Origin: Shigella phage SSE1
Sequence record: MK639187
Strand: one strand, 5' to 3'
DNA length: 64,000 nucleotides
Below, piece after piece: positions 8,496-26,494 of the stretch. The notes beneath the pieces are model-generated. The model worked only from the letters and a program-made list of their open reading frames with translations, was not told the origin of the DNA and searched no databases. The position numbers and the translations under genes were made by a program. Position 1 is the stretch's first letter, and the number at the start of each line of letters is the position of its first letter.

Positions 8496-8819
8496 ATGAC
8501 TACCGAGATTATTGAAAATAAAGAAGCAGAAGATGCAGTAGCTAAAATGCTACAAGAAATCCAAAAGAAAAATGAAGCTGAAGCACGTAAAAAATCCGAA
8601 AAGATTCTTAAAAAGAATCGTTTTGAACTAAACCGTCTTTATGCTCATGCTCAAGAAGCAGCAATTCAAAACAACTTCGAAGCTTACGAATATGCTATTA
8701 AGAAATCTCGGGATATTCTACGACAACCATATAATGACAAGTTAATTAAAATCCAGTGGGTTACTACTCGTCAGGCTATTGAGGACATCATTAATGGCGC
8801 TAGTTCAAACAAAGTTTAA
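8496..8819 (+). CDS. Hypothetical protein
   Basis: 107-aa ORF. Confidence 0.5.
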   Translation: MTTEIIENKEAEDAVAKMLQEIQKKNEAEARKKSEKILKKNRFELNRLYAHAQEAAIQNNFEAYEYAIKKSRDILRQPYNDKLIKIQWVTTRQAIEDIINGASSNKV

Positions 8820-9000
8820 ACGATTGAAGCTGAACGCAGGGTTCACCCTTAAATTGGGAGGTCCTCTTTGTGTTAAAATCTCTGAAAAGGAATATCACGA
8901 CGGTTCTATTACAGAAATTTGTCCACCTATTGTAAAGGCAGACCCAAAACAACTCGTATGGGTTGATTCATTTCAAGTTAAGAAATGGTGGAAACGATGA
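8794..9000 (+). CDS. Hypothetical protein
   Basis: ATG 8794 after GAGGA. Confidence 0.4.
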   Translation: MALVQTKFKRLKLNAGFTLKLGGPLCVKISEKEYHDGSITEICPPIVKADPKQLVWVDSFQVKKWWKR

Positions 9001-9039
9001 GAGAAATCGATTTAGGTATTTTCTGAGAGGTGATTATGC

Positions 9040-9213
9040 ATGACGAACGACCTGACCTCTGAAAATTTCGATAAAATCCGTAAAGGCAAAGCAGAAAGAA
9101 TGAGACGTTTTAAAGAGTCTTATGATAAAGCTAAAGCCGAAGGAACTATTACATACAAGCCCATTCGATTTAAAAGTTCAAATGAGCCTCTGTATGGTGT
9201 ACTATGTGGATAG
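9040..9213 (+). CDS. Hypothetical small protein
   Basis: 57-aa ORF read by hand, followed by hairpin terminator. Confidence 0.35.
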   Translation: MTNDLTSENFDKIRKGKAERMRRFKESYDKAKAEGTITYKPIRFKSSNEPLYGVLCG

Positions 9214-9238
9214 GAACTCTTCGGAGTTCCTTTTTTGC
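9213..9238 (+). terminator. Intrinsic terminator (GGAACTC-TTCG-GAGTTCC, T6)
   Basis: Seen in sequence, upstream of gp47. Confidence 0.7.
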
Positions 9239-9282
9239 TTTATAAACGGATGATAGAATGAATTAACTAATGAGGAAATAAT

Positions 9283-10302
9283 ATGAAAATTTTGCACTTA
9301 GGCGACTTCCATATTGGAGTCAAACAAGACGACCCATGGGTTCAAGATATTCAACGTGATGGTATTCGTCAAGCAATTGAATACTCTAAGAAACACGGGA
9401 TTAAAACTTGGATTCAGTACGGTGATTGGTTTGACGTCCGTAAAGCAATAACACATCGTACAATGGAATTCAATCGTGAAATCGTTGATATGATTTCTAA
9501 AGCAGGCATTCACGTTCATGTCACGATAGGAAACCATGACATGGCGTTTAAGAATACAATAACACCTAACACTGTTTCTGAATTATTAACTCAATTTGAA
9601 AACTTTACTATTTACGAACATCCAACTACTGTAGATTTTGACGGATGTCTGATTGATATCGTTCCATGGATGTGCGAAGAAAATACAGGTGAAATCTTAG
9701 AGCACATCAAGACTTCTTCTGCCGCGTATTGTGTTGGGCACTGGGAACTGAATGGTTTTTATTTCTATAAAGGAATGAAGTCTCATGGGCTTGAACCTGA
9801 TTTCTTAAAGACCTATAAACAAGTCTGGTCCGGCCACTTCCACACAATCTCTGAAGCTGCTAACGTCAAATATATCGGGACACCATGGACCCTTACTGCA
9901 GGCGATGAGAACGACCCGCGCGGATTCTGGGTATTCGACACTGATGTTGAACGTATGGAATTTATTCCTAATGAAACAACATGGCATCGACGAATCACTT
10001 ATCCGTTTAAAGGCAAAATCAATTATTCTGATTATACTAATCTAGCCGTACGTGTTATAGTATCAGAAATTGATTCAGAGTTGACTAAGTTTGAATCTGA
10101 ACTTGAAAAAGTAGTTCACTCTCTTCGTATGGTTTCTAAAGTTGATAACAGTGTTGAATCTGATGACGACCAGGAAATCGAGATTAAATCACTTCAAGAT
10201 ATCATTAAAGAATATATTGACGCGATTCCAGATATCTCAGACGAAGACCGAGAAGCGCTGGTCAAATATTCCAACGAACTTTATATCGAGGCAACACAAT
10301 GA
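9283..10302 (+). CDS. 47: Recombination nuclease subunit gp47 (Mre11-like)
   Basis: 339 aa, calcineurin-like phosphoesterase motifs (GDFHIG, GNHD). Confidence 0.9.
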   Translation: MKILHLGDFHIGVKQDDPWVQDIQRDGIRQAIEYSKKHGIKTWIQYGDWFDVRKAITHRTMEFNREIVDMISKAGIHVHVTIGNHDMAFKNTITPNTVSELLTQFENFTIYEHPTTVDFDGCLIDIVPWMCEENTGEILEHIKTSSAAYCVGHWELNGFYFYKGMKSHGLEPDFLKTYKQVWSGHFHTISEAANVKYIGTPWTLTAGDENDPRGFWVFDTDVERMEFIPNETTWHRRITYPFKGKINYSDYTNLAVRVIVSEIDSELTKFESELEKVVHSLRMVSKVDNSVESDDDQEIEIKSLQDIIKEYIDAIPDISDEDREALVKYSNELYIEATQ

Positions 10303-10556
10303 CTTTAGATGAATTTAACAATGCCGGACTCAGCCTTGAAGTTGAAATGGACGTTAAAGATGATGATGGATTCGAGAACACTATCAAGTATTGGATTGAA
10401 CCATTACGCGTTGAAGGCAATGAAGTTAAAGCAGTTCATGTCTGCACCGACTGGGCTGTTGAATTTAGCTTTAATATAATGGACAACGATACTCCTGGCT
10501 CTATTCTTAAAATGGCTGAAGCGTGTATTGAGGATGCGTATAATGACGAAGACTGA
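10299..10556 (+). CDS. Hypothetical acidic protein
   Basis: 85-aa ORF. Confidence 0.45.
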   Translation: MTLDEFNNAGLSLEVEMDVKDDDGFENTIKYWIEPLRVEGNEVKAVHVCTDWAVEFSFNIMDNDTPGSILKMAEACIEDAYNDED

Positions 10557-10782
10557 TTATGAAATCCATCGTCATGAATTTAGTATTGGTGACGGTTATA
10601 TTGGTATCGTTGAATGGACTGAGAATTACGAGGAATCAACTCCTCGTTTCTTTGGAACCATGTATGTTACCTGTGAGTACGCACCAGGTGTTGTCATGTA
10701 TGCAGAACTAGATGAATATTTTGCTGATAGAGATGACATGTTAAAATATGTAGAGGACTTCATTCGAAGAGAATACATATGA
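10543..10782 (+). CDS. Hypothetical protein
   Basis: ORF-track start 10528 is TTG; ATG at 10543. Confidence 0.45.
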   Translation: MTKTDYEIHRHEFSIGDGYIGIVEWTENYEESTPRFFGTMYVTCEYAPGVVMYAELDEYFADRDDMLKYVEDFIRREYI

Positions 10783-15921: not shown

Positions 15922-18633
15922 ATGAAAGAATTTTACTTAACGGTTGAACAGATTGGTGATTCAATTTTTGAACGTTACATCGATTCTAATGGCCGTGAAC
16001 GTACTCGTGAAGTAGAATATAAACCATCACTGTTTGCTCATTGTCCGGAAAGTCAGGCTACGAAATATTTCGATATCTACGGTAAGCCGTGTACTCGTAA
16101 GTTGTTCGCCAATATGCGTGATGCGTCTCAATGGATTAAACGCATGGAAGATATCGGACTTGAAGCACTTGGCATGGACGATTTCAAATTGGCGTATTTG
16201 TCTGACACTTATAACTATGAAATCAAATACGACCATACAAAAATTCGTGTGGCTAACTTCGACATCGAAGTAACATCTCCGGATGGGTTCCCTGAGCCGT
16301 CACAAGCAAAACATCCGATTGATGCTATCACCCATTATGACTCAATTGATGACAGGTTCTACGTATTTGATCTATTGAATTCTCCATATGGTAATGTAGA
16401 AGAATGGTCTATCGAAATTGCGGCTAAGCTTCAAGAACAAGGTGGTGATGAAGTTCCATCCGAAATTATCGATAAAATCATTTATATGCCGTTCGATAAC
16501 GAAAAAGAATTGTTGATGGAATATCTCAACTTCTGGCAACAGAAAACTCCTGTCATTTTGACTGGATGGAACGTTGAGTCATTTGATATTCCATATGTGT
16601 ATAACCGAATCAAGAATATTTTTGGCGAATCTACTGCGAAACGTTTATCACCACATCGCAAGACTCGTGTTAAAGTTATTGAAAACATGTATGGTTCTCG
16701 TGAAATCATTACATTGTTCGGTATCTCTGTTCTTGATTACATTGACCTTTACAAAAAATTCTCTTTTACCAATCAACCATCATATTCTCTGGATTACATT
16801 TCAGAATTTGAATTGAACGTTGGTAAACTGAAATATGACGGCCCTATTTCTAAGCTTCGTGAAAGCAATCACCAACGATATATTTCTTATAACATTATCG
16901 ACGTGTATCGTGTATTGCAAATTGATGCTAAGCGTCAGTTCATCAACTTGAGTTTGGACATGGGTTATTATGCTAAAATTCAGATTCAATCTGTGTTTAG
17001 CCCAATTAAAACATGGGATGCTATTATTTTTAATAGCCTTAAAGAGCAGAACAAGGTGATTCCACAAGGCCGTTCTCACCCGGTTCAACCTTATCCTGGC
17101 GCTTTTGTTAAGGAACCTATTCCAAATCGATACAAATATGTAATGAGTTTCGACCTTACATCTCTGTATCCAAGTATTATTCGCCAAGTGAATATTAGCC
17201 CAGAAACAATAGCAGGAACGTTTAAAGTAGCTCCACTGCATGATTATATTAACGCAATCGCTGAACGTCCTTCTGATGTGTACAGTTGTTCTCCTAACGG
17301 CATGATGTATTATAAAGACCGTGATGGTGTAGTTCCAACTGAAATCACTAAGGTCTTTAATCAACGTAAAGAACATAAAGGTTACATGCTTGCGGCTCAA
17401 CGTAATGGTGAAATAATTAAAGAGGCATTGCATAATCCTAATCTTTCTGTTGACGAACCATTAGATGTTGATTATCGTTTCGACTTCAGTGATGAGATTA
17501 AAGAAAAGATTAAAAAGTTGTCCGCTAAATCTCTTAATGAAATGTTGTTTAGAGCTCAACGTACTGAAGTTGCAGGTATGACTGCCCAAATTAACCGTAA
17601 ATTGCTTATCAACTCACTTTATGGTGCACTTGGCAACGTTTGGTTCCGTTATTATGATTTGCGTAATGCTACTGCAATCACAACATTTGGTCAAATGGCT
17701 TTACAGTGGATTGAACGTAAAGTTAATGAATATCTGAATGAAGTTTGTGGTACAGAAGGTGAAGCTTTCGTTCTTTATGGTGATACAGACTCTATTTACG
17801 TATCTGCTGATAAAATTATCGATAAGGTTGGTGAATCTAAATTCCGTGATACCAACCATTGGGTAGACTTCTTAGATAAGTTTGCACGTGAACGTATGGA
17901 ACCAGCTATTGATAGAGGTTTCCGTGAAATGTGTGAATACATGAACAATAAACAACACTTAATGTTCATGGACCGAGAAGCTATCGCTGGGCCTCCACTC
18001 GGTTCTAAAGGTATTGGTGGATTCTGGACTGGTAAGAAACGTTATGCATTAAACGTGTGGGATATGGAAGGTACTCGTTACGCTGAGCCTAAACTCAAAA
18101 TCATGGGTCTAGAGACTCAGAAATCTTCGACTCCTAAAGCAGTACAGAAAGCTCTTAAAGAATGTATTCGTCGTATGCTTCAAGAAGGTGAAGAATCATT
18201 ACAAGAATATTTTAAAGAGTTTGAAAAAGAATTCCGTCAATTGAATTATATTAGCATCGCGTCGGTATCTTCTGCGAATAACATTGCTAAATATGATGTA
18301 GGTGGATTCCCTGGTCCCAAATGCCCGTTCCATATTCGTGGAATTCTGACGTATAACCGGGCTATCAAAGGTAATATCGATGCACCGCAAGTTGTAGAAG
18401 GTGAAAAAGTATATGTTCTGCCTTTACGTGAAGGAAACCCATTCGGTGATAAATGTATCGCATGGCCTTCTGGTACTGAAATCACAGATTTAATTAAAGA
18501 CGACGTACTTCATTGGATGGACTACACTGTTCTCCTTGAGAAGACATTTATTAAACCACTTGAAGGATTCACATCAGCAGCGAAACTCGATTACGAGAAG
18601 AAAGCATCTCTATTCGATATGTTCGATTTTTGA
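15922..18633 (+). CDS. 43: DNA polymerase gp43 (family B)
   Basis: 903 aa; exo motifs (FDIEV), polymerase motifs (DxxSLYPS, YGDTDS); same length as RB69 polymerase. Confidence 0.97.
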   Translation: MKEFYLTVEQIGDSIFERYIDSNGRERTREVEYKPSLFAHCPESQATKYFDIYGKPCTRKLFANMRDASQWIKRMEDIGLEALGMDDFKLAYLSDTYNYEIKYDHTKIRVANFDIEVTSPDGFPEPSQAKHPIDAITHYDSIDDRFYVFDLLNSPYGNVEEWSIEIAAKLQEQGGDEVPSEIIDKIIYMPFDNEKELLMEYLNFWQQKTPVILTGWNVESFDIPYVYNRIKNIFGESTAKRLSPHRKTRVKVIENMYGSREIITLFGISVLDYIDLYKKFSFTNQPSYSLDYISEFELNVGKLKYDGPISKLRESNHQRYISYNIIDVYRVLQIDAKRQFINLSLDMGYYAKIQIQSVFSPIKTWDAIIFNSLKEQNKVIPQGRSHPVQPYPGAFVKEPIPNRYKYVMSFDLTSLYPSIIRQVNISPETIAGTFKVAPLHDYINAIAERPSDVYSCSPNGMMYYKDRDGVVPTEITKVFNQRKEHKGYMLAAQRNGEIIKEALHNPNLSVDEPLDVDYRFDFSDEIKEKIKKLSAKSLNEMLFRAQRTEVAGMTAQINRKLLINSLYGALGNVWFRYYDLRNATAITTFGQMALQWIERKVNEYLNEVCGTEGEAFVLYGDTDSIYVSADKIIDKVGESKFRDTNHWVDFLDKFARERMEPAIDRGFREMCEYMNNKQHLMFMDREAIAGPPLGSKGIGGFWTGKKRYALNVWDMEGTRYAEPKLKIMGLETQKSSTPKAVQKALKECIRRMLQEGEESLQEYFKEFEKEFRQLNYISIASVSSANNIAKYDVGGFPGPKCPFHIRGILTYNRAIKGNIDAPQVVEGEKVYVLPLREGNPFGDKCIAWPSGTEITDLIKDDVLHWMDYTVLLEKTFIKPLEGFTSAAKLDYEKKASLFDMFDF

Positions 18634-18673: not shown

Positions 18674-19309
18674 ATGAAAACTACTCCTATTACTATCGCT
18701 ATTGACGCAATCATAAAACAAGCTTCTTCTTTGGCCGCTATGGCCAAAGTAATTAGTCAAAACCCTGCTCGTTATAATGCTATTCTAGAAACTCTTCGAC
18801 GCCCAGGGCTTAGTAATTATGAAAGCCGAGTAATTATTACAGGTGTTGGTAAGAATGCTAATATTGCAACTAAAGCTTCTGAGACATTTGCTTCACTCGG
18901 TATCCCGAGTATGTACTTGAACACCGGGCATTATTCTCACGGTGATGCAGGATTCATTGCGCCTAATGATGTGTTGATTCATATTAGTCGTTCTGGTAAA
19001 ACTGAAGAAATGATAGGCGTGGCTAAGCATCTTAAAATGATTCGTCCGAACGTCAAACAGATTCTGTTGCATTGTAACCCAGACATTCCACAAGAAAATG
19101 AAGCCCTTTTTGATTACTCTTTCTGTACAGGCATCGCAGTAGAGGTTGATGAGAATTCTCTGGCTCCGACTATGTCCACTACATTATTGTTAGCGCTTAT
19201 CGATACGTTTGCTATCAACCTTTCGTCTGAACGTGGATTTACCTCTAATGACTTCCTTAAGTTCCACCCTGGCGGTGCACTAGGTGCCATGTTACGAGGC
19301 GAACAATGA
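18674..19309 (+). CDS. SIS-domain sugar-phosphate isomerase, KdsD/KpsF (arabinose-5-phosphate isomerase) type, no CBS domains
   Basis: 211 aa; GVGKN, SRSGKTEE, APTMSTT, FHPGGALG motifs. Confidence 0.75.
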   Translation: MKTTPITIAIDAIIKQASSLAAMAKVISQNPARYNAILETLRRPGLSNYESRVIITGVGKNANIATKASETFASLGIPSMYLNTGHYSHGDAGFIAPNDVLIHISRSGKTEEMIGVAKHLKMIRPNVKQILLHCNPDIPQENEALFDYSFCTGIAVEVDENSLAPTMSTTLLLALIDTFAINLSSERGFTSNDFLKFHPGGALGAMLRGEQ

Positions 19310-19449
19310 AAGCAATAACAATAGGACTTTTACTATTGATGCTTGTCATGACTATCTACTGGAGCTTAACGGCTCCGGTAATGATTCCGACACTTGTAAT
19401 TGGATGGATTATGATTGGACTACAAGCAAAGTATGAATGCTTTAACTAG
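19306..19449 (+). CDS. Small membrane protein
   Basis: 47-aa hydrophobic ORF read by hand; ATG overlaps SIS gene stop. Confidence 0.35.
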   Translation: MKAITIGLLLLMLVMTIYWSLTAPVMIPTLVIGWIMIGLQAKYECFN

Positions 19450-19490
19450 AATAGTGTACAATACTCCTACTTACCAATGAGGACCACAAC

Positions 19491-21176
19491 ATGAAAAAAG
19501 CTGTTATTCTTGGTGCTGGACTGGCAACTCGTTTGTATCCAATAACGCATCATATTCCTAAGGTGCTTGTTAACTATAAACAAGACACTATTCTGAGCAA
19601 TTTGTATACAATTTATTCTGACCTTGGCGCAGATGAAATTATTGTAGTAGTTCATTCAAAATTTGCTGAAACTGTTCGAGCTTATTGTGAGCAAGAAGGG
19701 TTCAATGTGACTATTCGTACAGTTGATGAAGCGTATGGATCTGCTTATGCTCTTGCTAAATTACACAAAGATTTAGACGGCCATAATGTAATTGTTAACT
19801 GGTGTGATATTATTCCCGATTTTGGTTCATGGTCTTGGAATGTTAACGCAATCTATGTTAAGGGTAACGAATGTCGATATAATTTCGACGGTGAAAATAT
19901 CACTAACGTAGGTTCAACAGGTGGTAATGTTGTAGGAATTTATCAGTTCAAAGACTGGGAATTCTATATGGGTTCTACTGATGAGGAAATTCATGAATAC
20001 TGCAAAGGACGTGATTTCGTAGAATTCCTTTACAGCGGTGCATTCAATAAATCAGAGCTTATGAATCTAATTGATTTAGGTGATATGCCTAAACTTGAAA
20101 AAGCTCATGAAGTTCGTGAACTTAATCGTAGTTTTAATGCAGTTGAAATTGGTGAAGAAACTGTAACTAAATTCGCATTAACTGAACAAGGTCGAGCTCT
20201 TCAGAAAGATGAGATTTCATGGTATCTTAAAGTGAAATCAGATTCAGTTCCTCAGTTAGTTTCTGTTAATGAAAATAACTTTGAAATGGAACGCATTAAA
20301 GGTAAGCCGGCATTTGAATATATTAAATCCAAATCAAGCCTTGCTCGTCCACAAATTGTTGATGCAATTTTAGACGCACTGAAATTCAGCACAGACACTT
20401 ATTTTGTAAGTCCTGAAACTGTTCGTCGTGATTTCACTAAAGAATTCTATACTAAAGTTATTGATCGTTGTGAAAGTATTCAACCGTTGATTGATTCATT
20501 TGGTAAAATCACACATGTGAACTACACTAAGATTGGGCGTCTGAAGCCAATGCTGAAACAAGCTTTAGAACACCTTATTCGTTATCATAACCGTTCTCAG
20601 GGACAGTACTCTGTTATTCATGGTGACCCGAACTTCAGTAATACTATGATTACTGATAACGGCGAAGTCAAGTTTATCGACCCTCGTGGATATTTTGGCG
20701 AAACCAAAATTTACGGGCCAAAATTGTATGATGAAGCTAAAGTGCTTTATGCTGTTTCAGGTTATGATGAATTCAACGCTAATCCGACCTGGGGCCAGTT
20801 TACTATTGATGAAACAACTTGTAATGTGACTATTAACATCAATCCATTAGTTTACAAATATGGAAAGATGAGTTCGTTTAACGAGTATCATCATTTGGCA
20901 GTGGCAATTATCTGGATTGCATTAGGTGGTTATTTCAAGAATAATCCACTTAAAGCGGTAGCCGCATATTATAAAGGTATGGAACTTCTGACTAAGCAAT
21001 TACGTAACATGGGCCGTGTACTTCAGGACGGCTCTATTAGTTATGACGTAGCAGAACCTGTAACGGCTACTCTGATTACAAAAAATCCTGGTAAATGGGT
21101 ACTAACTGATAAAGAAACTGGTGTTTCCTATCGTCCAATCGGTGGCGATATCACTCATCAATGGGAACGAATCTAA
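19491..21176 (+). CDS. Bifunctional sugar-1-phosphate nucleotidyltransferase / anomeric sugar kinase
   Basis: 561 aa; N-terminal ILGAGLATRLYPITHHIPKVLV (NTP-transferase G-loop); C-terminal VIHGDPNFSN and IDPRG (APH/AmgK-type kinase). Confidence 0.7.
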   Translation: MKKAVILGAGLATRLYPITHHIPKVLVNYKQDTILSNLYTIYSDLGADEIIVVVHSKFAETVRAYCEQEGFNVTIRTVDEAYGSAYALAKLHKDLDGHNVIVNWCDIIPDFGSWSWNVNAIYVKGNECRYNFDGENITNVGSTGGNVVGIYQFKDWEFYMGSTDEEIHEYCKGRDFVEFLYSGAFNKSELMNLIDLGDMPKLEKAHEVRELNRSFNAVEIGEETVTKFALTEQGRALQKDEISWYLKVKSDSVPQLVSVNENNFEMERIKGKPAFEYIKSKSSLARPQIVDAILDALKFSTDTYFVSPETVRRDFTKEFYTKVIDRCESIQPLIDSFGKITHVNYTKIGRLKPMLKQALEHLIRYHNRSQGQYSVIHGDPNFSNTMITDNGEVKFIDPRGYFGETKIYGPKLYDEAKVLYAVSGYDEFNANPTWGQFTIDETTCNVTININPLVYKYGKMSSFNEYHHLAVAIIWIALGGYFKNNPLKAVAAYYKGMELLTKQLRNMGRVLQDGSISYDVAEPVTATLITKNPGKWVLTDKETGVSYRPIGGDITHQWERI

Positions 21177-21562
21177 TGCACCGTGTAGAAAACATGCTTA
21201 ATCTTTGTTTTGATGTCGACGATTGTATAACAGAGTGGAATAACAATCGTGATTACGTGAACTTCAAGCCAGACGTCGAAATGGTGACTGCCATTAATGC
21301 CCTGTATGATGCAGGGCATACCATAACGCTTTACACTGCTCGCGGTATGAAGTCAGTAGGTCCTGGTCGTATAGCAATTGACATTCTCCCAAGTCTGATT
21401 CAGAACTTGGCAAACATTGGCTTGAAGTACCATAATTTGCTAACACATAAACCAGTATATGATTGGATTATCGACGACAAAGCTATGCGTCCTGACGAAT
21501 TCAAAGCTCTTATGAATAAAGGCGAATTCGAAACATTTAAATCATATAAACCGAACCTATAA
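21176..21562 (+). CDS. HAD-like phosphatase (putative)
   Basis: 128 aa from ATG 21176 (TAATG overlap); FDVDD motif I-like, TLYTAR, IIDDK. Confidence 0.45.
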   Translation: MHRVENMLNLCFDVDDCITEWNNNRDYVNFKPDVEMVTAINALYDAGHTITLYTARGMKSVGPGRIAIDILPSLIQNLANIGLKYHNLLTHKPVYDWIIDDKAMRPDEFKALMNKGEFETFKSYKPNL

Positions 21563-21608
21563 TAATTTAAGTAAGACCTGCAAAAACCATCGCATCAACT
21601 AACGCGAG

Positions 21609-22778
21609 ATGCAAAAAATGAATACTTTTAAAATCGGAACGAATTTTGATTTAGCTCTTCTTGATAAAATCGTAGAGCTCAATAAAACTTATCCTAATAG
21701 CTTGATAAACGAAGTATACGGCTCTACAAGAGAAATGGCTTTTGTAGCAGCCAGACCTGATTTTAGGCTTCCTGACGTTGACAAAAAGATGTTAGAAGAT
21801 TACGTTAAACGTTGTAACGAATTAGGTATTTGCTTTAACTATACACTCAACACGATAAATCCTGGTTCAAAAAGAGAACTAGTCGAGTGGAAGAAGAAAG
21901 CTATTCAGGATTATGTTCAGTATCTTTGGTCAATAGGCGTATGGCGTATTACTATCGCTAACCCTGTTGTTATGGAAATTGTTCGTGAAGTCAATAAAGA
22001 CATTGAGATTGAAGTTTCAACAATTCTACATGTCGATGCTGTAACTCAAATCAAATACTTACATGACCAATACAATATCAAAAAGGTCTGCTGTGGAATT
22101 CATAAGAACCGTTCAGTTTCTTTCCTGAAGCGTGCAGCAGAGTTTTGCAATAAGAACAATATAATATTTGAAGTTCTTGTAAATGAGTTCTGTTCTAATG
22201 CTGGTAAAGGGTATACAACACATTGTAGCTATCGTGACTCTTGCTATATTTTCCATAGTACTGATGTTACAGTAGATGATGCTAAATCCTTAAACGGATA
22301 TCCTATGCAGCACTGTATTAAAGCTCGTGATACAGACCCATTTAACTGGTTGAGAACTCGTTTTGTTCGTCCTCAAGATTTGAAACTTTATAATGATATT
22401 GGTATCACTCAATTCAAAGTTTCAGGACGTACAGGTAGCACAGACTACATTTTGAAAGTTCTTGAAGCTTATGCTTCTGAAAAATTTGAAGGTAATTTGT
22501 TGGAATTGTGGAAGCCTTTAGAGACCATTTTCACTCTTGAAAATGAGACCGAGTTTTCACATACGGTAAATATTGAAACCTCTTTGTTAGATGGCTTTTT
22601 AGAAAAAAGGTGGTTCAAACATCCAGATTTCGATTGTGCTAATGAAATCTGCGGGACGACGTGTACATATTGTGAAAGATATTATAAACGTCAGTTATCT
22701 AAAAATGGGTTATCAGAAAATTCTATATCTATTATTGATATAACTAACTCTGACGACGCTTTGAGGTACCCAGAATGA
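21609..22778 (+). CDS. Cys-rich protein of unknown function
   Basis: 389 aa; Cys clusters EFCSNAGKGYTTHCSYRDSC and CANEICGTTCTYCERY. Confidence 0.55.
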   Translation: MQKMNTFKIGTNFDLALLDKIVELNKTYPNSLINEVYGSTREMAFVAARPDFRLPDVDKKMLEDYVKRCNELGICFNYTLNTINPGSKRELVEWKKKAIQDYVQYLWSIGVWRITIANPVVMEIVREVNKDIEIEVSTILHVDAVTQIKYLHDQYNIKKVCCGIHKNRSVSFLKRAAEFCNKNNIIFEVLVNEFCSNAGKGYTTHCSYRDSCYIFHSTDVTVDDAKSLNGYPMQHCIKARDTDPFNWLRTRFVRPQDLKLYNDIGITQFKVSGRTGSTDYILKVLEAYASEKFEGNLLELWKPLETIFTLENETEFSHTVNIETSLLDGFLEKRWFKHPDFDCANEICGTTCTYCERYYKRQLSKNGLSENSISIIDITNSDDALRYPE

Positions 22779-22936
22779 TTTCTAGAAAAACTTTTAACCA
22801 CCAACTTAACGAAGAGATTTTGACTACGAAAATTAACAGCAACGAACAAATTCTTAAAAAGGCCCTTATGGGCCTGTTTGAAACTAAAGCGGCTAAAGTG
22901 ATTAAAGAAACCTGTTCAACTAGAATACTACGCTGA
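22775..22936 (+). CDS. Small ORF, possibly a frameshifted gene (continuation to 23015 in +1 frame)
   Basis: 53-aa ORF; downstream frame codes a protein-like tail but has no start codon. Confidence 0.3.
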   Translation: MISRKTFNHQLNEEILTTKINSNEQILKKALMGLFETKAAKVIKETCSTRILR

Positions 22937-23056
22937 TGCATTTCTTCATAGTGTTCTTGGAAGTATCGATGCTGAAGCTTTACGTTATATCAACATCGCT
23001 AAGAAATTCAAATAAGCTTTATGAATTGAGTATATAATAACTGTATTGAGGTAAAC

Positions 23057-23773
23057 ATGGGAAAACATAACACAATGAAATATATTAAAGCCGCAGATTT
23101 TCAATCCGCATTTAAAGTTGTCAATCGTGAAATTTTAGAAAACCCGGAATTCGTTACTGATTCTCGTATTGGACGTTGTAATGAAATTGGGTCTATGACA
23201 GTAGTTGTTGATACCCCTTCATCATTCAAAATGTCAGACCCACGTATTAATCGCATCTCTTATGAATATGCTGAAGATTTCTGGAAATTTATGATTTCTG
23301 GTGGTACTGATGCAGAAGAAGCATTTAAGGCATATCCTAACGTTGCTAAATTTATTTCTAAACCTAAATCAGATGCTTTGCCTGCGAACTTCAACACTTT
23401 CTATGGTCCACGAATTGCGGCCCAGTTACCAGCTCTTCTCAAAGAACTTAAAGAGAAACCTAATTCACGAAGAGTTGTGTTTCAAATTCTTGAAAGTTCA
23501 GATCAGGCTTTGCTTGATTCGGACGAAACACTTGAATATCCATGTACTGACTCAGTGACTTATTATATTCGTGATGGTAAGCTTTATACCCACTGTCATA
23601 TGCGTTCTCAGAACTGTGCTGTTGTTATGCAGTTGGATTTTTATCTCCAAGGAAAATTACTTCATTATATCGCTAACGAATGTGGTGTAGAAGTTGGTGA
23701 TTATACTCATACCATGGTAAGTGCCCATGTGTTTGAACGTGATTTTGATTATGTTAAAGGATTCCTTGACTAA
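23057..23773 (+). CDS. 42: dCMP hydroxymethylase gp42 (thymidylate synthase family)
   Basis: 238 aa; PNSRRVVFQ and YPCTDSV...HCHMRSQN align with the T4 gp42 pattern. Confidence 0.85.
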   Translation: MGKHNTMKYIKAADFQSAFKVVNREILENPEFVTDSRIGRCNEIGSMTVVVDTPSSFKMSDPRINRISYEYAEDFWKFMISGGTDAEEAFKAYPNVAKFISKPKSDALPANFNTFYGPRIAAQLPALLKELKEKPNSRRVVFQILESSDQALLDSDETLEYPCTDSVTYYIRDGKLYTHCHMRSQNCAVVMQLDFYLQGKLLHYIANECGVEVGDYTHTMVSAHVFERDFDYVKGFLD

Positions 23774-24672
23774 TGGCTATTTTCCGCGTACCTATCTTGA
23801 GTATGCGGTCTTATGAAACTGGACAGTATGCTATCCTTAAGGATGGCAACTTCCAACTTCATTTGCACCGTGCTAATCCAGGTGATGTGATTACATATCC
23901 ACGTAATGCATCTGATATTAAAGAATGCGAACGTCTTTTTCCAGAATTTAAGTTTGTTCCATTATGGTATAAAGATAACGCGTATAACACTCGTAAATAT
24001 TTCTGGTCTGAAAATGAATTTGTGGTTGATTCATTAATTGCTTATTATGATTGTGATTTTCTAATCACAGATATCACCGGATATGACGGCTCTTTTGATG
24101 TGGAATTCAATTTCAATATCACTGCAGATCCTAATAAACCACGTTTTTATATTGACGAATTCTTAAAAACTGATATGTTGTCGGTTAATCGTTCACTTCA
24201 AACTACTGTGTTGAATGAACGTCAAAAAGAAGTGCTGGTTAACGCAGGTGCAGATGGTAATAAGATTATCGTAACGCAGAAAGTTATACGTCCTTCCATC
24301 ATGCAGCGTCTTGTAGGTGATTTGGCTCCTATTCATCTAGATGGTATTTTTCATCCATTTCGAATTAGTGACCCGTGCTATCGTTTTGAACAAGTGGTTG
24401 AATGCGCAATTCAATTAGGTCAACCGCTTTATATAACTGATCCAAATAATAGTTTCGACAGAAATAAGTATCCTGAAGAAGCGCTGATTCGAATTTTTAA
24501 TCCAACTAAAACTGAGTACTATCAAATTCTTAAAGGACGTCCGAAGATTCAATATTTCGAAAATCCTGAAGAAGTATTCCATCCAGGTCTTGGCGAGTTC
24601 ATCTACTTTAACGCTTTAATTTCTTCGCCGTATAATATACCTAAATATGAAGATGTCGTAATCGAGGAATAA
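23773..24672 (+). CDS. Unknown protein in the beta-glucosyltransferase position
   Basis: 299 aa, start overlaps gp42 stop; no similarity to T4 beta-gt recognised. Confidence 0.55.
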   Translation: MAIFRVPILSMRSYETGQYAILKDGNFQLHLHRANPGDVITYPRNASDIKECERLFPEFKFVPLWYKDNAYNTRKYFWSENEFVVDSLIAYYDCDFLITDITGYDGSFDVEFNFNITADPNKPRFYIDEFLKTDMLSVNRSLQTTVLNERQKEVLVNAGADGNKIIVTQKVIRPSIMQRLVGDLAPIHLDGIFHPFRISDPCYRFEQVVECAIQLGQPLYITDPNNSFDRNKYPEEALIRIFNPTKTEYYQILKGRPKIQYFENPEEVFHPGLGEFIYFNALISSPYNIPKYEDVVIEE

Positions 24673-24673
24673 A

Positions 24674-25222
24674 ATGGCTAAAATTATTTTAGTAGATGGC
24701 CCGGATAATGCTGGTAAAACAACTTTCATTAATGACATAATGGAAATTAGTGAAAGATATGTAAAGATTGATTTCCCTAAACGAACAGTTGATGGACGTT
24801 TCGATGTTAAGTCTCGAAATGAAGTTGGCTGTTTCGAAACGATGTTGAATTATTTAGACCCTACTAAGATTTATCTGTTAGACCGTGGATATATTAGTAA
24901 CTGGGTTTATGGACGTATTCGACAAGATGCGGACTCGGTTCTTGACGTTTATGAACAGGATTATGTTCGTCTTTGCCAAAACCATGATGTGTTCACAATT
25001 ATTTTAACACGTAACGAAATGACTGAAAGTTTTGAAGACGACCTTATTACTTTGTCTTCGTTCGGTTTTAATACAGTCATTTCATATTTTGAAGAGTTTG
25101 CAATTCATAACGAAATCCAAACGTATCAATTACTTAATCATGATGGTGCTAACAAAGTTATAGGATTTAATGCAAGCGAACGTAATAATTTGATTACAGA
25201 AATTATCAAATGGGCTCGTTAA
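24674..25222 (+). CDS. P-loop kinase, thymidylate/deoxynucleoside kinase-like
   Basis: 182 aa; Walker A DGPDNAGKTT, DRGY motif. Confidence 0.55.
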   Translation: MAKIILVDGPDNAGKTTFINDIMEISERYVKIDFPKRTVDGRFDVKSRNEVGCFETMLNYLDPTKIYLLDRGYISNWVYGRIRQDADSVLDVYEQDYVRLCQNHDVFTIILTRNEMTESFEDDLITLSSFGFNTVISYFEEFAIHNEIQTYQLLNHDGANKVIGFNASERNNLITEIIKWAR

Positions 25223-25321
25223 GAGCCTGTTTAAAGTTTTAAATGCTGTATAACCCTTAGTATATAATCGTCTTATCTTTTAAACATGAGTAAAATATAA
25301 TGATGCCTATGGAAAAATACA

Positions 25322-26494
25322 ATGTCTGATTTAAAATCTCGTCTGATTAAAGCTTCTACTTCTAAAATGACTGCAGACTTGACTAAGTCTAAGCTGTTTA
25401 ATAATCGTGATGAAGTCCCTACTCGTATTCCGATGTTGAATATTGCATTAGGTGGTGCACTGAATGCCGGGTTGCAATCAGGCTTAACTATTTTTGCTGC
25501 TCCTTCTAAACACTTTAAAACGTTGTTTGGACTGACCATGGTTGCAGCATATATGAAGAAATATAAAGATGCAATTTGTTTGTTCTATGATTCAGAATTT
25601 GGTGCTTCAGAATCTTATTTTCGTTCAATGGGTGTTGATTTAGACCGTGTAGTTCATACTCCGATTCAATCTGTCGAACAACTTAAAGTTGATATGACTA
25701 ATCAGCTTGACGCTATTGAACGCGGTGATAAAGTTATTATCTTTATCGATTCAATCGGTAATACTGCATCTAAGAAAGAAACCGAAGATGCATTGAACGA
25801 GAAAGTCGTAGGTGATATGTCTCGTGCTAAGGCACTTAAATCTCTGTTCCGCATTGTGACTCCTTATCTGACTATTAAAGATATTCCATGTGTTGCAATC
25901 AACCATACAGCAATGGAAATTGGTGGATTGTATCCTAAAGAGATTATGGGTGGTGGTACAGGTATTCTTTATTCTGCTAACACTGTATTCTTTATCTCTA
26001 AACGTCAGGTTAAAGAAGGTACAGAATTGACCGGTTATGACTTCACGTTGAAAGCAGAAAAATCTCGTACAGTTAAAGAGAAATCTACTTTCCCGATCAC
26101 GGTTAATTTCGATGGTGGTATCGACCCATTCAGTGGCTTGTTAGAAATGGCGACTGAAATTGGTTTTGTGGTTAAGCCTAAAGCTGGTTGGTATGCTCGT
26201 GAATTCCTTGACGAAGAAACGGGCGAAATGATTCGTGAAGAAAAATCATGGCGTGCTAAAGCTACTGATTGTGTAGAATTCTGGGGACCATTGTTTAAAC
26301 ACAAACCTTTCCGAGATGCAATTGAAACTAAATATAAACTAGGTGCTATCTCTTCTATTAAAGAAGTTGATGACGCTGTTAACGACCTTATTAATTGCAA
26401 AGCAACAACTAAAGTTCCGGTTAAAACTTCTGATGCTCCGTCTGCAGCAGATATAGAAAACGACCTTGACGAAATGGAAGATTTCGATGAATAA
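25322..26494 (+). CDS. uvsX: Recombinase UvsX (RecA-like)
   Basis: 390 aa, recognised as T4 UvsX-like across its length. Confidence 0.95.
   Translation: MSDLKSRLIKASTSKMTADLTKSKLFNNRDEVPTRIPMLNIALGGALNAGLQSGLTIFAAPSKHFKTLFGLTMVAAYMKKYKDAICLFYDSEFGASESYFRSMGVDLDRVVHTPIQSVEQLKVDMTNQLDAIERGDKVIIFIDSIGNTASKKETEDALNEKVVGDMSRAKALKSLFRIVTPYLTIKDIPCVAINHTAMEIGGLYPKEIMGGGTGILYSANTVFFISKRQVKEGTELTGYDFTLKAEKSRTVKEKSTFPITVNFDGGIDPFSGLLEMATEIGFVVKPKAGWYAREFLDEETGEMIREEKSWRAKATDCVEFWGPLFKHKPFRDAIETKYKLGAISSIKEVDDAVNDLINCKATTKVPVKTSDAPSAADIENDLDEMEDFDE

Follow-up and report, generated by a model that had tools for sequence, protein, structure and literature searches.

The window, a 64,000-nucleotide stretch of the genome of Shigella phage SSE1, comes from an RB69-like (Mosigvirus-type) T-even phage, and its segment 21500-26600 is 98% identical to phages DCP548, F2, PNJ-6 and HY126. 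The record of one of these, Escherichia phage F2 (NC_054913.1, locus L001), is labelled Tequatrovirus, although the RB69-type 5-hydroxycytosine/arabinose cluster is complete in it, again at 98% identity to the window, so that the label looks like a taxonomic mislabel. Between the DNA polymerase gene and uvsX lies a base modification cluster (Table 1), the last three genes of which, encoding a thymidylate synthase homologue, a glycosyltransferase (GT) and a kinase orthologous to RB69 gp45, are contiguous and tightly packed. A single base separates the stop codon of the GT gene from the ATG of the kinase gene, whereas in relatives the GT stop and the kinase start overlap.

The thymidylate synthase homologue is near-identical to the proteins of PDB entries 9iqc, 9ir2 and 9iqu (E 2e-161), with Asn aligned to D169 and Asp aligned to N177 of E. 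coli ThyA. The D169N + N177D signature has been established experimentally as a mark of flavin-dependent 5-hydroxy-dCMP synthases, and the modified base in RB69 DNA is not arabinosyl-hmC but 5-hydroxycytosine bearing one or two arabinoses (Lee et al., NAR 2026, PMC13326640). The neighbour of the kinase is thus a 5-hydroxy-dCMP synthase and not a dCMP hydroxymethylase, which corrects the first-pass annotation where it had set the kinase next to hmC genes. Upstream, the AfhE homologue has a kinase domain to which the conversion of arabinose-5-P to arabinose-1,5-P2 has been assigned, and the AfhF homologue is given the phosphatase step (PMC13326640).

The U32-"peptidase" gene of the cluster belongs to a family whose characterised members RlhA, TrhP and UbiU/V are O2-independent, prephenate-dependent hydroxylases, and phage Rgz1 has a bona fide chorismate mutase gene between its U32 gene and the synthase gene. 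A second, anaerobic way of making 5-hydroxycytosine, held in reserve, is suggested by these two observations. In the literature it is annotated only as "sugar or heterocycle reductase".

Inspection by eye finds boxes of the form GCT[T/G]TA, followed after 11-12 nt by GTATATAAT, that flank the synthase-GT-kinase trio on both sides; a weak suggestion is that the trio may form its own MotA-dependent transcription unit. A scan of 22700-25400 for generic sigma-70 promoters and terminators gave nothing above shuffled expectation.

Table 1. Features of the modification locus and of the loci compared with it (positions refer to the window unless a record or locus is named)
Feature	Position	Strand	Basis or remark
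DNA polymerase	15922-18633
Rest of modification cluster (isomerase to U32-family gene)	18674..22778	+	PMC13326640
Arabinose-5-P isomerase	18674-19309	+
Bifunctional nucleotidyltransferase/kinase, AfhE-like	19491-21176	+
HAD phosphatase, AfhF-like	21161-21562	+
U32-family protein (RB69 gp50)	21609-22778	+
T4 middle-promoter-like GCTTTA, 11 nt, TATAAT, 5' of trio	23016..23038	+	by eye, weak
5-Hydroxy-dCMP synthase, thymidylate synthase homologue	23057..23773	+	D169N + N177D; overlaps GT start by 1 base
Predicted GT-B glycosyltransferase, 299 aa (RB69 gp46:47, "arabinosyltransferase 1")	23773..24672	+	PHROG 3891; PMC13326640 Table 1
Shine-Dalgarno GAGGAA of kinase gene	24664-24669	+	read from sequence
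TMPK-like P-loop kinase, orthologue of RB69 gp45	24674..25222	+	ATG start, 182 aa
Walker A / P-loop DGPDNAGKTT, residues 8-17	24695..24724	+	ORF, 19-homologue alignment, hhalign to human TMPK
FPKR, residues 34-37	24773..24784	+	aligns with FPER/FPQR of type-I thymidylate kinases (vaccinia TMPK alignment, hhalign)
DRGYISNWVY, residues 70-79 (DRx and S-x-x-x-Y helix of TMPK dNMP site)	24881..24910	+	alignments
DRGY, residues 70-73	24881-24892	+	ORF translation, sequence
LID-equivalent segment, residues 113-125	25010..25048	+	19-homologue alignment, TMPK alignment
T4 middle-promoter-like TGCTGTA, 12 nt, TATAAT, between kinase and uvsX	25244..25268	+	by eye, weak
uvsX	25322-26494
RL38J1 synthase-GT-kinase trio	MN549360.1 129791-132242 (L032 24792-27243)	minus
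MP1 kinase	L013 7995-8525
MP1 sole thymidylate synthase homologue, td position next to frd	NC_031020.1 142020-142859 (L023 42020-42859)	minus
Rgz1 chorismate mutase	L019 7023-7400
Kinase::HhH-GPD fusions			P0058, P0060, P0065, P0067, P0069, P0074, P0076, P0116
Fusion-gene loci	L025 8001-9074; L029 1446-2390; L026 127-1092
Very distant kinase relatives / other thymidylate synthase homologues	L017 8001-8543 / 9747-10589; L018 6170-6673 / 8624-9571		HMM E ~1e-5

Conservation, fold and active-site motifs of the kinase

The kinase reading frame is a genuine conserved phage gene, far beyond a chance ORF, since 343 of 50,697 phage records contain it by tblastn (with at least 80% of the protein covered in all 343), it matches PHROG 761 ("thymidylate kinase") at 5e-45, 37 alignment columns are invariant across 19 homologues of 44-72% identity, and pairwise dN/dS values range from 0.07 to 0.24. 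By these ratios the gene is under purifying selection. The frame and its DGPDNAGKTT and DRGY motifs are all present as they had been described at first pass. The sequence family is small: a limit of E≤1e-3 admits 318 clusters among 1.84 billion representatives, and one of E≤1e-10 admits 45.

The gene is already known as a putative nucleotide kinase. RB69p045 was listed as a thymidylate kinase homologue presumed to take part in the synthesis of the arabinosylated base (PMC8056088, 2021, Table 2), and RB69p045, DLP3_078 and RL38J1_214 were later designated "nucleotide kinase" from structure searches (PMC13326640, 2026, Table 1), in a study that goes no further than a generic predicted function for two conserved genes of the cluster, this one and the U32-family gene. 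The window kinase shows no material difference from RB69 gp45 (RB69p045, NP_861735.1), DLP3 gp78 and their orthologues. Neither PMC8056088 nor PMC13326640 contains an activity test of an RB69p045-type kinase, and no substrate test was found in the literature searched, which did not extend to He et al. 2026 and Mahler et al. 2025.

Structure prediction, which had been named as a check at first pass, yields a three-layer P-loop NMP-kinase fold whose best matches among solved structures are thymidylate kinases (TMPKs); dCK and dGK structures fit less well. Against a small TMPK alignment, in which the vaccinia segment agrees with the HMMER printout, the family profile reaches 97.3% probability, and it gives weak matches to thymidylate kinases and to YorR of the Bacillus subtilis prophage SPbeta (PDB 2axp/3kb2), the latter a marginal similarity at E 0.047. 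Single-sequence searches of Pfam, NCBIfam and, by phmmer, the PDB returned only P-loop noise (RecA, thioredoxin): no Pfam family reached threshold, PF02223 had no match at E≤0.1 (Pfam GA 27 bits), the NCBIfam dTMP kinase model TIGR00041 (cut-off 83 bits) was not matched, and phmmer found neither a structure nor a sequence relative in the PDB. Homology to T4 gp1 (PDB 1dek) was likewise not found. An ERS-type motif, whose Glu is the catalytic base, is typical of the dCK/dGK/dNK family; the Pfam model of that family, PF01712, does not match the kinase, and the Arg-rich LID of that family is not present.

The Walker A sequence has the form GxxxxGK[ST] with Asp at the third position, and G9, D11, N12, G14, K15 and T16 of the P-loop are invariant in the 19 homologues; in the hhalign alignment with human TMPK, D11 corresponds to D15 and N12 to R16. 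The P-loop Asp of TMPKs contacts the 3'-OH of the dNMP. FPK is among the invariant residues of the family, as are D70, R71, S75, N76, V78 and Y79 of the segment D70-R71-G-Y-I-S75-N76-W-V-Y79, which aligns with the DRxxxSxxAY motif of the TMPK dNMP site. In TMPKs a base-stacking Phe is followed after four residues by the thymine-O4-binding Arg (F-x-x-x-R); R48 falls at the position of this Arg in the hhalign alignment, where the preceding residues 37-44 are modelled with pLDDT <50 and R48 itself is Asp in phage JS98. The LID-equivalent segment RNEMTESFEDDLI contains a single invariant Arg (R113); the acidic F-x-DDLI that comes next (FEDDLI here) is invariant too. A catalytic Arg was seen neither in the P-loop, as in type I enzymes, nor in a basic LID, as in type II; because Asn replaces the P-loop Arg and the acidic FEDDLI the Arg-rich LID, the catalytic geometry is atypical.

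Kinase and TMPKs (vaccinia A48R, 2v54; human DTYMK; M. tuberculosis Tmk) thus have in common the fold, the P-loop Asp, an FPxR-like motif, DRx and S-x-x-x-Y. They differ in that the kinase has only ~14-20% identity to them, is ~20-30 residues shorter, lies below all curated profile thresholds, has Asn for the type-I P-loop Arg and one Arg with FEDDLI in the LID equivalent and, unlike TMPKs, is found only with dCMP-modifying synthases. In the alignments its invariant residues map onto the ATP site (G9, G14, K15, T16) and dNMP site of a TMPK. The kinase descends from the TMPK fold and is predicted to work as that fold does, and it stands outside the curated thymidylate kinase families.

Linkage to the 5-hydroxycytosine module

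The kinase gene belongs to an arabinosyl-5-hydroxycytosine cluster of the RB69 gp45-gp55 type (the Afh genes in HY126) and adjoins the gene for the D169N + N177D synthase. Across the phage collection, 343 records have the kinase, 348 the GT and 373 the D169N-type synthase (the last number including 20 Rhizobium phages), and by genus the three numbers are nearly identical, among them 177 each in Escherichia, 57 in Acinetobacter, 14 in Shigella, 7 in Proteus and 6 in Yersinia. By this comparison, which is one of counts and not of record lists, the phyletic distribution of the kinase is like that of the synthase and the first GT (GT1), with one exception found, Morganella phage MP1. The order synthase-GT-kinase-uvsX is present in 13 of 15 Straboviridae IMG/VR loci compared, the other two being MP1 and a contig that ends upstream of the GT. 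In JS98 the genes are rearranged to HAD-kinase-synthase-GT and the kinase still adjoins the synthase. In T4 the same slot is occupied by gene 42, beta-gt, segA and uvsX, a synthase-transferase pair with no kinase.

Distant metagenomic relatives (loci L030, L033, L036, L037, L038, L025 and L029) have the same trio, or the kinase directly 3' of the synthase; their GTs and synthases were confirmed by HMMs, and D169N and N177D are both present in all five synthases that were aligned. Eight distant cluster representatives are fusions of the kinase with a C-terminal HhH-GPD, or endonuclease-III-like, domain of ~150 amino acids. In L025 and L029, the two loci with a visible upstream gene, the fusion gene lies directly 3' of a 5hodCMP-type synthase, and in L025 it is adjoined by FMN reductase and SIS isomerase genes. 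Among glycosylases, endonuclease III is the classical one for 5-hydroxycytosine. Very distant relatives of the kinase occur near other thymidylate synthase homologues on two viral contigs of 48-64 kb (L017 and L018); these homologues have N177D, keep D169 and carry Arg at the position of L143, residues by which they are predicted to be of a different, uncharacterised dCMP-modifying type.

In the Rhizobium phage RL38J1 (Pootjesviridae) the sugars put on 5-hydroxycytosine (5hoC) are galactose and glucose (PMC13326640 Table 1). Its genes 216-215-214 encode a synthase (30% identity to that of the window), a GT (27%) and a 211-residue P-loop protein that is TMPK-like by structure (Lee et al., PMC13326640), and a gp1-like kinase is also encoded three genes away. 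HMM and blastp comparisons of RL38J1_214 with the window kinase gave no sequence match, and its inclusion in the same sequence family was dropped, position and fold being all that the two have in common. The RL38J1 kinase has either diverged to an extreme degree or taken a fixed position by non-orthologous replacement. Because the same order of synthase, GT and TMPK-fold kinase is found in a phage that uses hexoses, the kinase would appear to be tied to the base and not to arabinose, a sugar independence to be read with the qualification that in RL38J1 position and fold are shared and homology was not detected.

In MP1 the kinase gene stands between the polymerase gene and uvsX, and the 5hodCMP synthase, GT and arabinose genes are absent from the 163 kb genome by whole-genome tblastn and HMM searches; a location of the modification genes elsewhere in the genome was rejected, as only td and the kinase were found. 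The cluster is complete in its relative Rgz1. Decay of the MP1 kinase was also rejected: all 37 invariant residues are kept, and its identity to outgroups is only ~0-7 points below that of the Rgz1 kinase. From its sequence the MP1 kinase thus appears to be functional without the module. The sole thymidylate synthase homologue of MP1 was at one point taken for an ordinary T5-like enzyme, a reading dropped when the alignment revealed Asp at the N177 equivalent in MP1 only, with Asn in the 72%-identical Rgz1 td and in the T5-like td. N177D is the classic switch of specificity from dUMP to dCMP (refs 46, 60 and 61 of PMC13326640). MP1 also keeps homologues of gp56 dCTPase, DenB and Alc. These data suggest, speculatively, that the MP1 td may have been converted to a dCMP methylase-like enzyme, possibly with 5-methylcytosine in the DNA, and another C5-modified dCMP, such as 5-methyl-dCMP, may keep a substrate available for the kinase.

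Substrate and role of the kinase

From the fold, the catalytic and dNMP-site motifs, the purifying selection and the linkage we infer, with moderate confidence, that the protein is a pathway-dedicated kinase for C5-modified dCMP, the simplest substrate being 5-hydroxy-dCMP. It would be an active, divergent TMPK-fold enzyme that serves the 5-hydroxycytosine DNA modification module and is co-expressed with the synthase of 5-hydroxy-dCMP and with GT1. In an ATP-dependent reaction it would convert 5-hydroxy-dCMP to 5-hydroxy-dCDP, pulling the product of the synthase towards the dNTPs that the phage polymerase uses, either alongside the general gp1-type dNMP kinase or with a kinetic lead over it. 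The pairing of phage thymidylate synthase homologues with nucleotide kinases is a general paradigm (PMC13326640), and T4 gp1 (PDB 1dek/1del) and RB69 gp159 are phage P-loop dNMP kinases through which a modified dCMP enters the dNTP pool. RB69 gp159 converts 5hodCMP to 5hodCDP in vitro and, co-expressed with the synthase, is enough to place 5hodC in E. coli DNA (PMC13326640). As gp159 already handles 5hodCMP and suffices together with the synthase, a second kinase is without demonstrated necessity, and the reason for its presence is something that we can only infer. Also counting against the reading are the missed thymidylate kinase profiles, the atypical catalytic geometry, the retention of the kinase in MP1 outside any such module and the lack of detectable sequence homology to the RL38J1 kinase. 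A modified-nucleotide kinase, one of the two options raised by the first-pass annotation, remains the best reading of the gene; the observation made there was correct and its interpretation is partly outdated, the hmC setting being wrong and the other option, a sugar kinase, disfavoured.

That other option, a pentose or pentose-phosphate kinase for the arabinose donor, is scarcely tenable. Only its place in a cluster that also makes UDP-arabinose speaks for it, and against it stand the nucleotide kinases, which outrank any sugar-kinase structural match, the hexose-using RL38J1 with a kinase of the same fold in its trio, and MP1, with a kinase and no sugar genes; the reading was rejected on these two phages and on the assignment of the arabinose-5-P kinase and phosphatase steps to the AfhE/AfhF homologues (PMC13326640). 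A plain dTMP kinase, or one for dNMPs in general, that raises the nucleotide supply and has no specific chemical link to the modified base is unlikely. Its fold and dNMP-site motifs are those of a thymidylate kinase, automated annotations call it one, and MP1 keeps it without the modification genes. However, T4 has no kinase in the equivalent slot, the distribution by genus follows the 5hoC synthase and GT and not T4-like phages generally, the PF02223 and TIGR00041 thresholds are missed, and in T-even phages dTMP kinase activity is already supplied by gp1. A kinase or NTPase acting on 5hoC in DNA, or a partner subunit of the GT, would have a parallel in the 5-hydroxymethyluracil DNA kinase (5-HMUDK; ref. 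64 of PMC13326640) of thymidine-hypermodifying phages, also a P-loop kinase whose gene lies beside a thymidylate synthase homologue in a hypermodification cluster. 5-HMUDK phosphorylates the base in DNA and so creates a leaving group. The eight fusions, in which the kinase is joined to a DNA base-flipping fold, two of them adjoining genes of the 5hodCMP synthase type, and the translational coupling of kinase and GT would fit such a role, but we consider it very improbable: the conserved residues suit the mononucleotide site of a TMPK, the window kinase has no DNA-binding domain, leaving-group chemistry of the 5-HMUDK type is neither needed nor seen for O-glycosylated 5hoC, a GT-B enzyme can O-glycosylate a free hydroxyl that has not been activated by phosphorylation, and the final base carries no phosphate (PMC13326640).

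It is quite unlikely, on present evidence, that the kinase acts on a glycosylated mononucleotide, with GT1 arabinosylating 5-hydroxy-dCMP before replication and the kinase phosphorylating a bulky product that gp1 cannot handle, and distinctly unlikely that the polymerase incorporates an already glycosylated dCTP made in this way from free 5-hydroxy-dCMP. The order of the genes, synthase, GT, kinase, would then be the order of the reactions; this order is common to two phage families, and the GT is the most constant neighbour of the kinase and translationally coupled to it, through the 1-nt spacer here and the overlaps in relatives. Lee et al. saw single GTs show no activity on 5hoC-DNA and left undecided whether the acceptor of the first arabinose is the mononucleotide or DNA (PMC13326640). 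The short, non-basic LID could conceivably accommodate a large C5 substituent. On the other hand, the analogous glucosyltransferase of T4 acts on DNA and T4 has the synthase-GT pair without a kinase, the later arabinoses go onto DNA (PMC13326640, Fig. 5), the kinase of MP1 stands without a GT, and in JS98 the kinase precedes the synthase and does not follow the GT. If true, this would be the first pre-replicative, nucleotide-level route of glycosylation for DNA, and it would explain the conserved trio alongside gp1.

Glycosylated 5-hydroxycytosine DNA, worked out only in 2025-2026, shields phages from restriction, CRISPR and glycosylase defences. Should the preferred 5-hydroxy-dCMP kinase prove merely redundant, the finding would be routine. 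The substrate of the kinase would show whether gp1 is insufficient for 5-hydroxy-dCMP in vivo and whether the first sugar is added before or after replication, the point left open by Lee et al., and it would define the minimal gene set for the modification in engineered phages or in vitro.
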